Below are positions 144 to 4,090 of a stretch of 64,000 bases of DNA, piece by piece. The notes under the pieces are model-generated. The model saw only the letters and a list, made by a program, of their open reading frames with translations, searched no databases and was not told where the DNA came from. Each line of letters starts with the position of its first letter. The stretch's first letter is position 1. Source of the stretch: a virus; IMG/VR virus record IMGVR_UViG_3300051212_000550. One strand, written 5' to 3'. The position numbers and the translations under genes were made by a program.

Positions 144-422
144 TTAAGACCATTTCATTGCAAACATACTGGCGTCTTGTTCGTTTTCAAAATACCAATA
201 CATTCCATCGCCGTTCTTAATATCTCTGAATTTATTTTGACAGTGTTCAAAACACCATGTAAGTTTTTCTGGGTAATTATCGTTATCGGGTAAACAGACC
301 TTGTGATAAGTTTCCAACAATTCCATTAATCTATCATGCTTTTTTAAATCTTCGCTGTACCAAGTTCTTATTTTTGGTACAGCCATTATTCTTGGAACGT
401 GTGAAACTTTGGTATAGATCAT
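144..422 (-). CDS. small protein, WC..LKW paralog family member (C-term YWYFENEQDASMFAMKWS)
   Basis: ORF track; shares the C-terminal W-C-x-E...F-E-N-E-x-DA-x-x-F-x-LKW motif with at least 10 neighbouring ORFs; TAA stop. Confidence 0.6.
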   Translation of the reverse strand: MIYTKVSHVPRIMAVPKIRTWYSEDLKKHDRLMELLETYHKVCLPDNDNYPEKLTWCFEHCQNKFRDIKNGDGMYWYFENEQDASMFAMKWS

Positions 423-817
423 CTACTTCCGTACCTTAGTAGCCATTCTGTGAGAGCTGGCCCCATAAGTTTTGCTCTTATCTGATATTTGTATCCATAG
501 GTCGAAGGATCTGCGTATCTATTCCAGGTAGGTGCGTCGCAGGCATTTTTCATTATCCATTGTCCTTGCTCACTCTTCTCCCATTTCCATAATGGTTCAG
601 CAGCAAATAGATCTGGATCTTCTACATCGCCCATTGTAAATTCATGAACAACTACAGTCTTGACTTCTTCCACACGATCTCCTATGACGTTGTACTTATG
701 TCGTATAGGCGTATGTGTATGAAAATCGTGGTGTTGGAAATAGCTACCAGATAATACTTGATTTATAGTATCGGTGTAATCTGTTGCATCCGGCCAGGAT
801 GGTTTCATTTTAGCCAT
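419..817 (-). CDS. hypothetical protein (distant family variant, C-term WKWE...LTEWLLRYG)
   Basis: ORF track; 4-nt overlap with upstream gene; TGA stop. Confidence 0.5.
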   Translation of the reverse strand: MAKMKPSWPDATDYTDTINQVLSGSYFQHHDFHTHTPIRHKYNVIGDRVEEVKTVVVHEFTMGDVEDPDLFAAEPLWKWEKSEQGQWIMKNACDAPTWNRYADPSTYGYKYQIRAKLMGPALTEWLLRYGSR

Positions 818-818
818 A

Positions 819-1079
819 TCATAACCATTTAAGTTGAAATACTAGAGCTTCTTTATCGTCTATGATATTTACAGTATACATAGGGTCTCCGCTATTAAAA
901 CGATGTGTACAATCTGCTGTGGGACAATGCTTAGACATCCACTCTTCAAATTTACGATCATCCTCTGGATAGACCCAACAGGACCAACTGCGTGGTGGAA
1001 TCATAGGCCACTGCGATCCGGGGTTAATCGGATCGATGCCATTGTGGAACTGCCAGTGATGTACAACAGTATTACGCAT
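819..1079 (-). CDS. WC..LKW paralog family member (C-term EALVFQLKWL)
   Basis: ORF track; family motif. Confidence 0.6.
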   Translation of the reverse strand: MRNTVVHHWQFHNGIDPINPGSQWPMIPPRSWSCWVYPEDDRKFEEWMSKHCPTADCTHRFNSGDPMYTVNIIDDKEALVFQLKWL

Positions 1080-1470
1080 ATTTTAGTGCTATCATTAAAG
1101 CATCTTGTTCATTATTAGTAGCAACAAAAACAGTGTCCTTGCCGCCAAGCTCGTTTACTTGCCACTGCCATGCGGTAGCAGGACAATTGATTACACGTTC
1201 AAATCTCCATACGGCATTATTACCTAATGGACGAGCTGGCCAAAGATATTGTTTTGCATCTTGTGTAGGAACCCATGCAAACGGGTCAAAAGTAAAGAAC
1301 TTCATAGGATCAACAATGATAATATGTTCAAATTTCTCAAACATATCTTTGATCCTAGTAGCACGATAGTTGACATTTTGTTCGTACCAAGCTTCCCACT
1401 CGCGCTCTTCTTTAGTCTTACCAGTCTTGCGAGTAAGGTACCAATCTTTAAGTTTCTCGGTGAGCGTCAT
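1072..1470 (-). CDS. WC..LKW paralog family member (C-term NNEQDALMIALKYA)
   Basis: ORF track; family motif. Confidence 0.6.
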   Translation of the reverse strand: MTLTEKLKDWYLTRKTGKTKEEREWEAWYEQNVNYRATRIKDMFEKFEHIIIVDPMKFFTFDPFAWVPTQDAKQYLWPARPLGNNAVWRFERVINCPATAWQWQVNELGGKDTVFVATNNEQDALMIALKYA

Positions 1471-1741
1471 TTTTTAATATCTCAAAGAGTTCGGCATATT
1501 CTACTTCTGGTTCCATATGAAAACCAGTACCCCACACTACCCAAAATTTACGTTTGTAGATCTTACGACCCCAAACATACTTTCCAGAGATAGTCTTAAT
1601 AGGCCACCAGGCACGTACCTCTGTCCATGGATAGCAGTCACAGCCATCGTAGATCCTTTGTGTTATTTCCATAATCCAATATTCTCCTGTCCCTGGATTC
1701 TTAGGAACATATTTTACCTTTGATGCAGATTTGTGATTCAC
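1448..1741 (-). CDS. hypothetical small protein (possible divergent family member, ...EVEYAELFEILK)
   Basis: ORF track; tight overlap pattern with neighbours. Confidence 0.45.
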   Translation of the reverse strand: MNHKSASKVKYVPKNPGTGEYWIMEITQRIYDGCDCYPWTEVRAWWPIKTISGKYVWGRKIYKRKFWVVWGTGFHMEPEVEYAELFEILKNDAHRET

Positions 1742-1950
1742 GAGTACTTGATTGCAAATAATGTATAATTCTCATCGCTCATTTCAACCCAAGCCTCTGT
1801 TCCAGCATCATTTACTTCAACATCAAAATTGTACCATTCTTTAATTAATTGTTTTACTTGATGGTAGGAAGGATTTTTTATATCGTTATCTTGCAGCCTG
1901 TTATCAAAGTCTTCTAAAAACTTGTGATGTTTGTCTAGTCTAACCTGCAC
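1738..1950 (-). CDS. WC..LKW paralog family member (C-term ENYTLFAIKYS), GTG start
   Basis: ORF track; first codon reads GTG on the sequence. Confidence 0.5.
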   Translation of the reverse strand: MQVRLDKHHKFLEDFDNRLQDNDIKNPSYHQVKQLIKEWYNFDVEVNDAGTEAWVEMSDENYTLFAIKYS

Positions 1951-1952
1951 AA

Positions 1953-2255: not shown

Positions 2256-2406
2256 CTCAAAGAAAACAGTATTAGATCTTGTTCTCTTAAGAAATGAATC
2301 CTTCCCCGTCTGCGGTACCAGATGACGTTTTCATTCTCAGGACCAAAGATAGTTCTACACCATTCTAGTCTAGCCCACATCTCTGGAATCTTTTGAGTGC
2401 GATATT

Positions 2407-2664
2407 TCATAACCATTTTAGAGTAAAGTTAACAGCGTCACCTTGATCTTGAAAGACGAAGGTGGACCCAAAATGTTCAAAAGGATGTTTGATATTTTCT
2501 TCGCACCACATCAATATGTTGATAGAATGCTTTCTACTAAAGAATCTGGTCAGGGTGACTTTCTTCCAACCTAGACTTACTAACATACCAGAGAGGATTT
2601 CAAAATCTATTTCTTTGGTAATTTCTTCGCTCATGGTTTTAGCGATTTCATCTTCGAAGTTCAT
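2407..2664 (-). CDS. WC..LKW paralog family member (MWCEEN...DAVNFTLKWL)
   Basis: ORF track; family motif. Confidence 0.6.
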   Translation of the reverse strand: MNFEDEIAKTMSEEITKEIDFEILSGMLVSLGWKKVTLTRFFSRKHSINILMWCEENIKHPFEHFGSTFVFQDQGDAVNFTLKWL

Positions 2665-3059
2665 AGTCTGCTTTCAATGTCTTTTTCAAATACTGCCCAA
2701 CCTAGTCGACTTATTGGAGTGTTTTTGCGAGCCTGCACACAAATATAGCCTTCGTCATCAACAGTTACATTCCACTGATAGTATTTGTCGTTGTAAAGGT
2801 GATCTCGTAATTGTGCTACTAATATTGCAGGCCTCTTGAGATCTAGTTCTATATCAGATAGTTTAGTCTGTTTACCTTTAAGTATTTCCAAGACTTTTAG
2901 TTTCTCTAAATTTTCTTGATTGAGAGGAGTAAACTCGGCTCGATCATAAAGAGTCTCTAATGATCCCATCATAGCCAAAGGAGCAAAAGCTTGGCTCTTG
3001 ACTTTATAAAAGTCAAACTCTCGGATTATTACTTTGCGTCTTAAAGTTTTTATAGCCAT
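2661..3059 (-). CDS. hypothetical protein
   Basis: ORF track; 4-nt overlap coupling. Confidence 0.5.
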   Translation of the reverse strand: MAIKTLRRKVIIREFDFYKVKSQAFAPLAMMGSLETLYDRAEFTPLNQENLEKLKVLEILKGKQTKLSDIELDLKRPAILVAQLRDHLYNDKYYQWNVTVDDEGYICVQARKNTPISRLGWAVFEKDIESRL

Positions 3060-3265
3060 TTTAAAATAAACATTACTCTCTGTTCTTCATTGCGGATACG
3101 CCATACATCCATCCCACCGACTCCGTATTTGTGACCTTCTAGTACTATACCGTGTTTTTCAGACCAATCCCAAACTTCATGTCTTATAATAGACGGTAAG
3201 GGAATGTCTTTACTATCATAGTTTAATACGTAACCTCTGCCAATATCTAGATGATTTAAAGCCAT
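3050..3265 (-). CDS. WC..LKW paralog family member (RNEEQRVMFILKWL)
   Basis: ORF track; family motif. Confidence 0.6.
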   Translation of the reverse strand: MALNHLDIGRGYVLNYDSKDIPLPSIIRHEVWDWSEKHGIVLEGHKYGVGGMDVWRIRNEEQRVMFILKWL

Positions 3266-3654
3266 TTTAATACAAATAAAGTTCTATCTGATTCATTACG
3301 AAACCAAAACTTGCGGGCATTTTTGTACCAACGTTGAGCAGGTTCCGGTGCCTTGTCTGCTCCCCAGATAGGACTTATATCATTACCAAATGTTTCGTAG
3401 CACCATGCTTCCATCTCTGGCCAATTGCCACCTATGGGTTCTGCTGTATAGTAACGAGCACCATATACTTTACCTTCCGATAATTTAATATCTGATACAG
3501 GCTGACTATAGAGATCGTCCATCATTCTCTGCAGGGCCCGGGCAGAAAAGGCACTCTTGCCCGTCTGGCGCCCTGTCATCTGAACAAACCCTCTGCCTTT
3601 GTATCGTGTCATCTTATCTAATAGATCTAGTTGCCAAGGATGTATCATGCCCAT
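3256..3654 (-). CDS. WC..LKW paralog family member (EAWCYETFG...RNESDRTLFVLKWL)
   Basis: ORF track; family motif. Confidence 0.6.
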   Translation of the reverse strand: MGMIHPWQLDLLDKMTRYKGRGFVQMTGRQTGKSAFSARALQRMMDDLYSQPVSDIKLSEGKVYGARYYTAEPIGGNWPEMEAWCYETFGNDISPIWGADKAPEPAQRWYKNARKFWFRNESDRTLFVLKWL

Positions 3655-3878
3655 TTTAGAGAAAACATTACTGCATCTCTTTCATCTTTAAATGCATAAT
3701 TATTAGGGCCTAGTATATAAAATCGATCCTTGTTCATATTACTGGCTAACCATTCTTCTCTCGGATCAAACCAGCCATTGTCATCTTTTTCAGACTTTGG
3801 ATCTAGCTTAACCTGATAAGGCCAAATTGATTTTTTAAGAACTCTCATTTTATTTGATTCCCTTCGGCACTGCCCCAA
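3645..3878 (-). CDS. WC..LKW paralog family member (FKDERDAVMFSLKWA)
   Basis: ORF track; family motif. Confidence 0.6.
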   Translation of the reverse strand: MGQCRRESNKMRVLKKSIWPYQVKLDPKSEKDDNGWFDPREEWLASNMNKDRFYILGPNNYAFKDERDAVMFSLKWA

Positions 3879-4090
3879 CGCAACATAAACATCATGGCTT
3901 CTTTTTCTTCTTCAAACTGCCAATATAGGGCATGTGTTGTTTCACATCTCCATAGGCCTTGGCAATTTTCTTCGCACCATGATTTCATAGCATCTATGTT
4001 TAGATAACCAACGGTTTGAAAATTAATACGATGAGAAAAAGTAGCACGAGATCTCGTGGCTAAGATTTGACCTAGTGATGCTACTTTCAT
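3845..4090 (-). CDS. WC..LKW paralog family member (KSWCEENCQGLW...FEEEKEAMMFMLRWG)
   Basis: ORF track; family motif. Confidence 0.6.
   Translation of the reverse strand: MKVASLGQILATRSRATFSHRINFQTVGYLNIDAMKSWCEENCQGLWRCETTHALYWQFEEEKEAMMFMLRWGSAEGNQIK

Follow-up and report, generated by a model that had tools for sequence, protein, structure and literature searches.

The gene array

The window, the whole 64,000-nucleotide stretch of DNA that was analysed, comes from an uncultured freshwater jumbo phage with related contigs of 344-364 kb. Between positions 144 and 4090, 14 tightly packed, co-directional small ORFs lie on the minus strand. Nine of them are robust and two are probable members of a single protein family, a twelfth member crosses the left edge of the window, and three small genes unrelated to the family are interleaved. 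E-values are from profile searches unless stated otherwise.

3845-4090, minus: family member, 81 aa, external-profile E 1.9e-17; orthologues at 63/87 related loci
3645-3848, minus: family member, 67 aa (start ATG at 3848), E 2.6e-12; ATGA overlap with the gene upstream
3645-3654, minus: example of a 10-nt gene junction, repeated at 3256-3265, 3050-3059 and 2407-2416
3256-3654, minus: family member, 132 aa, E 8.6e-10; N-terminal extension of 80 aa, plus a long insert between helix 1 and the hairpin; dN/dS 0.07-0.10; orthologues at 37 loci
3050-3265, minus: family member, 71 aa, E 8.9e-8 (leave-one-out E 1e-4); dN/dS 0.035-0.14
2661-3059, minus: interleaved non-member gene, 132 aa, hhalign probability 0.1%; dN/dS about 0.06; orthologues at 25 loci
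2407-2664, minus: family member, 85 aa, E 1.1e-13, hhalign 99.2%; orthologues at 68 loci
2246-2416, minus: family member, 56 aa, near bare domain, E 2.8e-7 (6.4e-7 once its own relatives are dropped from the profile)
1953-2246, minus: probable divergent member, 97 aa, hhalign 94.8%, profile-profile E 5e-8; HMM E 0.007-0.009 (0.0067 with its own relatives removed); domain at residues about 28-79, then an 18-aa tail
1738-1950, minus: family member, 70 aa, begins with GTG; the full external profile gives E 4.1e-6
1448-1741, minus: interleaved non-member gene, 97 aa, hhalign 0.3%, HMM E 34
1072-1470, minus: family member, 132 aa, 84-aa N-terminal extension, E 1.3e-8; 100% identical to database protein P0026
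819-1079, minus: family member, 86 aa, 'CPTADCTHRFNSGDPMYTV' orthologous group, E 4.1e-10; orthologues at 37 loci and many in the database
419-817, minus: interleaved non-member gene, 132 aa, hhalign 0.3%, directly upstream of the 144-422 gene; dN/dS about 0.09-0.13; orthologues at 52/87 related loci
144-422, minus: family member, 92 aa, E 1.8e-22 (leave-one-out E 2.7e-11)
1-143, minus: N-terminal part of a further member, running off the window edge
22055-22312, minus: candidate remote member, 85 aa, hhalign 58%, E 1e-4 from a single sequence; HMM E 0.12-0.85

A profile built from the ten in-window copies was searched against the 966 six-frame ORFs of the window and found no further ORF at E<0.05. 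With window sequences only, leave-one-out searches recovered 7/10 copies at E<1e-3 and rank 1. When a profile of database relatives was used instead, and the BLAST-detectable relatives of each copy were taken out before that copy was scored, nine copies scored E<=7e-5. The weakest of the ten is 1738-1950, whose E falls back to 0.016 after its orthologue is removed from the profile and for which the window-only leave-one-out failed; it ends in KYS. The best conserved paralogue is 144-422 (orthologue alignment A3). For 3645-3848 the ORF list has an upstream TTG start at 3878; the gene call on the near-identical contig L005 and the database entry P0086 both have the 67-aa form. The member cut by the window edge is complete on L005 as a 73-aa gene (11328-11549, E 3e-5).

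The earlier note had described eleven consecutive members of 70-132 aa. A co-directional, overlapping run sharing a C-terminal module is indeed present, but it comprises 14 ORFs with three non-members interleaved, and members measure 56-132 aa. All three interleaved genes fall outside the family (hhalign probability <1%, HMM E>1), including 419-817 and 1448-1741, which had been taken for divergent copies. Pfam and PHROG scans of 419-817 and 2661-3059 were without match.

A protein family rather than a DNA repeat

An array of short similar ORFs could in principle come from translating a DNA repeat, or frames that are open by chance. Gene ends do share short direct repeats, of only 61-72% identity over 46 nt. 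However, no tandem repeat turned up in the array, the copies otherwise share negligible similarity as DNA, and the similarity is strongest at the protein level. Across 1.25 Mb of related loci the gene strand holds 431/432 profile hits, 314 of which end within one residue of a stop codon, a bias in strand, frame and C-terminal position that argues against an artefact. Orthologues show pN of 0.05-0.25 against pS of 0.5-0.9 (dN/dS about 0.04-0.17), so that each paralogue is under strong purifying selection. Database relatives in the hundreds and a confident structure model (below) point the same way. Taken together, the repeat, strand-bias, dN/dS, database and structure tests refute the artefact, whose remaining chance is negligible, and the conserved protein domain survives the refutation by a frame-independent DNA repeat that the earlier note had set for it.

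A truncated ferredoxin-like domain

Across the family the motif reads W-C-x-E-[NH]-C ... F-x-x-[ED]-x-D-A-x-[ML]-F-x-L-[KR]-W; it corrects the consensus first read from the array, while the C-terminal module proposed there is common to the members. An AlphaFold model, as the earlier note had suggested making, was confident for 3845-4090 (pLDDT 91.9, pTM 0.75). It places a helix at residues 6-17, a strand at 20-26, a helix at 29-42, strands at 47-50 and 56-59 and a helix at 62-72. The model of 144-422, which is less confident, repeats this beta-alpha-beta-beta-alpha order. The modelled module, roughly 55-60 residues long, is a ferredoxin-like domain and shows the secondary-structure order and the two-layer alpha/beta sandwich of that fold. 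The fourth strand is usually absent, as the protein stops right after helix 2; in the 3845-4090 model it is supplied by a short tail past the terminal W.

The domain forms the extreme C-terminus of the family proteins, after a variable extension of 15-85 residues. It is about 55-60 aa long, not 40 as first estimated, because the stretch just upstream of the motif is strand beta-1; in 139 representatives a V/I-rich stretch lies 11-17 residues upstream of the conserved W. The idea of unrelated N-terminal halves on a constant C-terminal module consequently stands by sequence, as the N-termini have no mutual BLAST similarity, but part of each N-terminus is strand beta-1 and lies within the fold.

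Almost no variation is seen at W, F, D, A, F, L, K/R and W. Several polar or reactive positions are also conserved: C 75%, E 49%, N/H 84%, C 53%, E/D 85% and D 95%. Within orthologous groups conservation goes further, with K-F-R-D invariant in the 144-422 group and CPTADCTHRFNSGDPMYTV nearly invariant in the 819-1079 group.

Database searches

Scans of ten window members and 143 diverse representatives against Pfam-A, PHROG, NCBIfam and PADLOC gave no match above the curated cut-offs. The best recurring sub-threshold matches were Gp23 (4/143, E about 1e-3) and phrog_13402 (2/143). The latter, the one PHROG that recurred and one without annotated function, aligns from strand 2 through helix 2 of 3845-4090 at a best E of 0.0029, below membership strength. 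The best PDB sequence match to the 143-sequence profile was an unrelated isomerase (E 0.035). All database relatives are called 'hypothetical protein' and carry no precomputed Pfam domain. Among viral structure models, the best matches were the BFVD 'uncultured Caudovirales phage' proteins A0A6J5LSA7, A0A6J5NXQ2, A0A6J5LU99 and A0A6J5LGV9, which are comparable in size, share 22-40% identity and reach TM-scores of 0.44-0.65, at E >=1.5e-3; unnamed and unstudied, they probably belong to the same family. The array is therefore a multigene family of small phage proteins that is uncatalogued in any database. The earlier note, which had recognised no name for it, was right in this. In metagenomes the family amounts to about 590 clusters at 50% identity.

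Structural comparison points to the ferredoxin-like domains RRM, ACT, HMA and the NikR C-terminal domain, with RRM4 of Pes4 (PDB 6exx) as top match. Identity to these is <=17%, the family's column frequencies show no signature motifs of theirs, and the fourth strand is usually missing here.

Distribution and age

Across 87 related loci there are 1-11 members per locus, and 11-12 copies here. Occupancy is uneven: some paralogues occur in 63-80/87 loci and others in 1-7. Tandem arrays recur in large uncultured phages; the contig L093, reached through a distant family member, has about 10-12 members. A concatenated tblastn query of 24 members found no match in 50,697 deposited phage genomes, and among 185,579 species genomes the only occurrences were two small MAG contigs that are probably mis-binned. 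The family is phage-only and essentially absent from these species genomes.

The paralogues are 10-41% identical, and adjacent pairs are no closer than distant ones; judged by sequence divergence, they are ancient and not recent duplicates. The description "hyperplastic" thus captures the variation in copy number and content between related phages, but not the age of the copies or the strong purifying selection on each.

Overlapping genes and probable coupled translation

Most gene boundaries in the array overlap, by 1-23 nt. In the recurrent 10-nt junction the next gene starts within the conserved LKW end, its ATG nested in AAATGG, the codons for Lys-Trp, so that a protein motif and a translation signal occupy the same bases. 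This overlap is found at 98/322 non-redundant family genes in related loci. A Shine-Dalgarno-like motif, read from the 20 nt upstream of each start, precedes 4/14 array starts, compared with 37/73 long ORFs in the window. Given these overlaps and the scarcity of ribosome-binding motifs at the starts, successive genes are probably translated in a coupled manner.

Coupled translation, together with the recurring overlaps, would suit subunits of one structural or chaperone-like assembly, for example in virion decoration or assembly, made in fixed ratios and joined through open sheet edges. A core set kept in most relatives and natural two-domain fusions of the family (P0202, P0208 and P0231) fit this reading, as does a weak Gp23-like stretch at the N-terminus of the 2407-2664 group (E 0.014). 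That similarity is below threshold, however, and a content and copy number ranging from 1 to 11 among relatives would be unusual for a fixed assembly. The block also sits among small unannotated genes, not structural genes: Pfam and PHROG scans annotated none of its neighbours. We consider such an assembly decidedly unlikely.

What might the proteins do?

Based on these observations, we tentatively favour, as quite possible, a reading in which the proteins are non-enzymatic binding modules with paralogue-specific partners. No enzyme-like conserved site is found among the near-invariant positions, and the Cys pair occurs in only 46% of representatives. W, F, F, L and W, with the helix-capping Asp-Ala, probably form a hydrophobic core. 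The segment from helix 1 to the hairpin and the N-terminal extension are conserved within orthologous groups and differ between them, which suggests that one stable non-enzymatic scaffold may have been diversified into binding modules. Each paralogue would engage a different host or phage protein, and partner binding would modulate host takeover, defence evasion or phage processes. Going by secondary-structure order alone, the missing fourth strand may free a sheet edge for pairing with a partner or a sister paralogue.

Three observations bear on this reading from the other side. Homology, domain fusions and gene neighbours single out no particular function. Purifying selection, ancient paralogues and a widespread core fit phage-cycle housekeeping at least equally well. 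Conserved polar or reactive positions, which the fold topology would place together at one pole, could instead belong to a ligand or metal site common to the family.

A ferredoxin-like sheet could alternatively bind RNA or DNA in the manner of RRM, KH or ACT domains, each protein tuning phage or host expression at its own target. This is unlikely. The consensus strands lack an RNP1/RNP2-type aromatic-basic motif, and charge is not consistently basic: the pI of representatives spans 4.8 to 10.4 with a median of 5.6, and 59% fall below pI 6. RRM itself was rejected by sequence pattern and a negative Pfam scan; the column frequencies hold no RNP1/RNP2-type motif, and strand 3 reads [WFY]-x-F.

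A shared metal or redox site, metallochaperone-like or thiol-based, built from W-C-x-E-[NH]-C and the acidic start of helix 2, is less probable still, with only a slim chance of being correct. The two Cys co-occur above expectation (odds ratio 4.65, Fisher p 3.6e-4, uncorrected for phylogeny) and the adjoining N/H is among the well-conserved positions. Against this, both Cys are present in only 66/142 representatives and neither in 26/142; 3645-3848, 3050-3265, 1738-1950 and 1072-1470 have neither. A third or fourth ligand that recurs consistently was not found among representatives. HMA domains bind metal in the strand-1/helix-1 loop, and an HMA/Atx1-like metallochaperone was rejected, as the M-x-C-x-x-C site is absent from that loop and the Cys here are spaced C-x-x-x-C and lie where helix 1 ends.

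Several viral systems resemble the putative binding modules in part. Poxvirus Bcl-2-like families use one stable fold whose paralogues each bind a different host protein. The likeness is one of working principle, a conserved core with paralogue-specific surfaces in multiple copies per genome; the fold and virus realm differ, there is no homology, and binding would here be predicted. The T4-type internal proteins IPI*, IPII and IPIII, of which at least IPI* is an anti-restriction protein, are a diversified set of small proteins sharing one short constant module and encoded by adjacent genes. They likewise combine a constant module with variable sequence in small proteins encoded side by side, but what stays constant in them is a short N-terminal peptide that targets the capsid and is removed at a prohead-protease cleavage site, whereas here it is a folded C-terminal domain. 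Membership in that group was rejected: the module is C-terminal, the N-termini are without similarity, and tblastn found no match in deposited phage genomes. Bacillus phage G carries a zinc ribbon in roughly 35 copies, a lineage-specific expansion (Iyer et al. 2021, PMC7824862). Both cases have many paralogues of one small domain in a large phage genome, with function suggested by analogy only. In contrast to that one-lineage burst, the family here is ferredoxin-like and spans many phage lineages as ancient orthologous groups.

The earlier note had likened the proteins to anti-defence or host-takeover effectors. Such a role is possible but unsupported, as the relatives matched nothing annotated and no fusion or neighbour bears on it directly. 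In relatives, a gene lying about 7 kb from here has a precomputed Pfam label, 'Gad2', that the scans did not reproduce. A pure arms-race arsenal is mildly disfavoured by low dN/dS and by core members that are near-universal. We speculate, while rating it as unlikely, that the phages carry a 'scaffold library' of truncated ferredoxin-fold mini-proteins made by coupled translation. Through the open sheet edge and the paralogue-specific hairpin and N-terminal surfaces, each copy would capture a different host factor, defence proteins included, or sister copies might alternatively pair combinatorially.

Implications

The finding remains descriptive without an assigned function. If the family is as it appears, it would be among the larger unnamed tailed-phage protein families, confined to uncultured, mostly large aquatic phages in which coupled tandem arrays recur. 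With a name and a profile for it, many metagenomic phage genomes would each gain annotation for several genes. Moreover, the proteins, of 60-130 residues, would offer a defined, structurally tractable set for host-target screens. Should the 'scaffold library' prove true, it would represent a new class of host-manipulation module, widespread among uncultured aquatic jumbo phages.

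Results

The minus strand of the window carries 14 small ORFs end to end at 144-4090 (ORF listing). Aligning the C-termini of the array ORFs regained the C-terminal motif described in an earlier note, and the eleven-member array proposed there stands as nine robust and two probable members. Three non-members are interleaved, and one more member crosses the window edge: it starts at 143, runs over the left edge and is complete on L005, a near-identical metagenomic contig that reaches beyond that edge.

Genes of the array block
3845-4090, 3645-3848, 3256-3654, 3050-3265, 2407-2664, 2246-2416, 1953-2246, 1738-1950, 1072-1470, 819-1079, 144-422, minus strand: family members (1953-2246 and 1738-1950 probable)
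419-817, 1448-1741, 2661-3059, minus strand: interleaved non-members
4092-4415, minus strand: 107-aa gene directly upstream of the array, phrog_16527 (E 1.7e-25), a PHROG without assigned function
5278-6357: AAA ATPase, phrog_2376 (E 2.9e-96)

Membership was assessed with profiles. A ten-copy profile run against the window's 966 six-frame ORFs gave no further match at E<0.05, and leave-one-out searches with window sequences alone regained 7 of the 10 copies (E<1e-3, rank 1). An external profile, built from 142 database representatives minus each tested copy's BLAST-detectable relatives, recovered nine copies at E<=7e-5 and scored the other two at E 0.016 (1738-1950) and E 0.0067 (1953-2246); profile-profile comparison assigns 1953-2246 to the family (94.8%, E 5e-8). 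The same comparison gives 419-817 and 1448-1741, previously taken for divergent copies, a probability below 1%, and they are rejected; 2661-3059 likewise falls outside the family (<1%), and 22055-22312, a candidate remote member, scores 58%.

Array genes are tightly packed, with a gap of 1-2 nt in two pairs and an overlap of 1-23 nt in all others, and their stop codons are TAA or TGA only. At four junctions the overlap is 10 nt, the downstream ATG lying within AAA-TGG, which encodes the Lys-Trp of the conserved ending; in related loci, 98 of 322 non-redundant family genes show this geometry, and 87 more use ATGA. Shine-Dalgarno (SD)-like motifs accompany 37 of the 73 long window ORFs, versus 14% of random positions, and only 4 of the 14 array starts, as read from the upstream sequences. 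Judging from the sequence, translation of successive array genes may be coupled by termination-reinitiation. A promoter scan gave no useful enrichment (29 sites against 20.8 +/- 5.7 expected). Solid PHROG matches in the array block are confined to the 4092-4415 gene and the AAA ATPase just upstream of the array, which is 59% identical to its counterpart in Microbacterium phage Pumpernickel.

Is the shared module a protein domain or a DNA-repeat artefact, the outcome that would have undone the original claim? A search of the array DNA for tandem repeats found none, and direct repeats are limited to the gene ends, where 46-nt stretches are 61-72% identical. In 87 related loci, which together span 1.25 Mb and 20,847 six-frame ORFs, 432 ORFs match the profile; 431 of these share the seed gene's strand, and in 314 of the 432 the domain ends within one residue of the stop. 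Orthologue pairs show pN of 0.05-0.25 against pS of 0.5-0.9, and dN/dS is ~0.04-0.17 where dS is unsaturated, in members and non-members alike. The module behaves as a protein domain.

The family is absent from the catalogues searched. A word-indexed search of 5.8 billion proteins returned 255 matches, all 'hypothetical' and without a precomputed Pfam domain, and a second protein search, using a broader profile, led to the same result. Exhaustive HMMER searching of 1.84 billion cluster representatives yielded 595 matches at E<=1e-3, nearly all of 42-150 aa with the module C-terminal; the large matches P0121, P0129, P0133 and P0134 are repetitive or low-complexity false positives. Three database proteins (P0202, P0208, P0231) carry two domain copies in one chain, and P0261 has an apparently hydrophobic region N-terminal to the domain. 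No member was found fused to any known domain. Neither the window members nor 143 diverse representatives gave a significant match in Pfam, PHROGs, NCBIfam, PADLOC or PDB sequences. Cluster look-ups gave no names, and literature searches on jumbo-phage tandem paralogues and on exact motif strings turned up no description of the family; the earlier remark that no name was recognised for it is borne out. P0411 and P0417 carry the JGI label 'YndB with AHSA1/START domain'; both are plain members of the 819-1079 group without Pfam support, and the label is treated as spurious. Megablast of window positions 1-6000 gave no match in deposited phages. Nor did 50,697 phage records yield one by tblastn, whether the query was either of two single members or 24 diverse members joined into a 1,743-aa concatenation. 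Among 185,579 prokaryotic species (one genome each) the family occurs on only two short MAG contigs, one in a Polynucleobacter and one in a Crocinitomicaceae MAG, both probably phage DNA binned in error.

Relatives come from metagenomic viral contigs that reach 344-364 kb, in which arrays recur, typically with 3-7 members and at most 11, in the window and L005. The degenerate-pattern search for loci used an orthologue alignment of the 144-422 group in place of the ten-paralogue alignment, because no paralogue stretch was conserved enough. Across the 87 loci the members are unevenly represented: five occur in 80, 68, 63, 37 and 37 loci, the rest in 1-15. Several relatives have the array immediately after a metallophosphatase gene, with ClpP and IF1-like genes a few kb downstream of it; in the window, genes for an S11 peptidase, a Band-7 protein and the AAA ATPase intervene, as does a tRNA, so this region varies. 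Members are also borne by more distant contigs whose examined 16-kb loci lack window homologues. L093, a metagenomic contig reached via a distant family member, has ~10-12 members in tandem (~2185-5177) within a long run of 50-95-aa genes, and another member adjoins a T4 gp13-like gene. Two related jumbo-phage contigs, L001 (88 kb) and L004 (344 kb), have genes for an autotransporter-domain protein and a CHASE2-guanylate-cyclase protein within a few kb of the array; an autotransporter is likewise encoded by Agrobacterium phage Atu_ph07.

The AlphaFold model of 3845-4090, built on a 143-sequence alignment (pLDDT 91.9, pTM 0.75), comprises helix 6-17, strand 20-26, helix 29-42, strands 47-50 and 56-59, helix 62-72 and a two-residue tail strand. 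The model of 144-422 is poorer (pLDDT 68) with the same element order. From this order, W-C-x-E-[NH]-C closes helix 1, [WFY]-x-F forms strand 3 and E-x-D-A-x-[ML]-F-x-L-[KR]-W forms helix 2. In 139 representatives the conserved W is preceded by a V/I-rich stretch (positions -11 to -17) and an acidic one (-4 to -9), a pattern that fits strand 1 and its loop. By this pattern and the model, the domain spans ~55-60 residues and not the ~40 aa first proposed. In BFVD, the structural matches, at E>=1.5e-3, comprise uncharacterised proteins from uncultured phages together with three from Atu_ph07; two family profiles run against the first 100 kb of the 490-kb Atu_ph07 genome found nothing at E<0.6.

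Family columns are, toward the C-terminus, W 98%, C 75%, E 49%, N/H 84%, C 53%, F 94%, E/D 85%, D 95%, A 88%, M/L 89%, F 99%, L 92%, K/R 94% and W 93%. The two motif cysteines co-occur (odds ratio 4.65), which lends a little support to a Cys-based metal or redox site; the counter-evidence is clear, as both are present in only 46% of representatives, neither in 18%, and no third ligand consistently accompanies the pair. The domains of window paralogues share 10-41% identity, and neighbours in the array resemble each other no more than distant copies do, so the array is old rather than a recent burst. The segment from helix 1 to the hairpin is strongly conserved inside orthologous groups and group-specific. 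N-terminal extensions have no mutual similarity, in line with the earlier view that these parts are unrelated. That of 3256-3654 (minus strand, residues 1-45) includes GRQTGKS, similar to the deviant P-loop seen in terminase large subunits; Pfam, PHROG and PDB lend this reading no support.

The window is phage-like, with nearly all long ORFs on the minus strand, GC of ~0.39 and a beta-helix tail-fibre-like protein. It also groups auxiliary genes unusual for phages:

Auxiliary and RNA genes of the window
9326-10123: Band-7/SPFH protein
12689-13504: S11 D-Ala-D-Ala carboxypeptidase
23201-25111: DnaK/Hsp70, full-length
25193-26212: IMPDH/GMP-reductase-type enzyme
39894-43318: class I ribonucleotide reductase, large and small subunits
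60444-61634: class I/II aminotransferase
8387-8462, minus strand: tRNA, anticodon CTA (amber-reading; ARAGORN label 'Pyl')
36676-37028, minus strand: phage-encoded tmRNA, best model Rfam RF01850 (betaproteobacterial tmRNA, 145.9 bits), permuted-tmRNA model also matching

ARAGORN predicts the tmRNA tag ANDDAFDFAAMSFNGNTVGGRVALAA. The tmRNA type and the family-bearing contig in a Polynucleobacter MAG hint at a freshwater betaproteobacterial host. TAG recoding, prompted by the CTA-anticodon tRNA, was rejected: TAG is the stop in 4 of 97 long minus-strand ORFs, and standard-code ORFs (>=80 aa) cover ~90% of the window. Homologues of 11434-12144 (minus strand) on L001, L004 and L005 carry the precomputed label PF26128 'Gad2', the name of an anti-Gabija family; searched against Pfam with hmmscan, the window ORF itself gave no match at E<=0.001. 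No tie was found to the 'moraphage' lineage (genomes up to 307 kb, PMC12619734).

Discussion

The family is real, large, phage-restricted and uncatalogued, with a common fold and conserved yet variable tandem arrays. What might its members do? Tentatively, and with somewhat less than even confidence, we propose that they are non-enzymatic binding modules, each paralogue having partners of its own. Nucleic-acid binding is an alternative with a little support and clear evidence against it; array proteins range in pI from 4.8 to 10.4, and the family median is 5.6. Members might also co-assemble as a structural or chaperone set. The first 30 residues of 2407-2664 (minus strand; EIAKTMSEEITKEIDFEILSGML) match the T4 Gp23 major-capsid profile (E 0.014) and phrog_138 below threshold, as do 4 of 143 family representatives; this reading too draws a little support and is met by clear counter-evidence. 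The anti-defence role suggested in the earlier note falls inside the binding-module proposal as a purely conjectural possibility, and purifying selection together with widely conserved core members weighs mildly against a pure arms-race arsenal. As expansion of a small domain in jumbo phages is already known from the zinc ribbon of phage G (PMC7824862), the array described here is a further case of that phenomenon.
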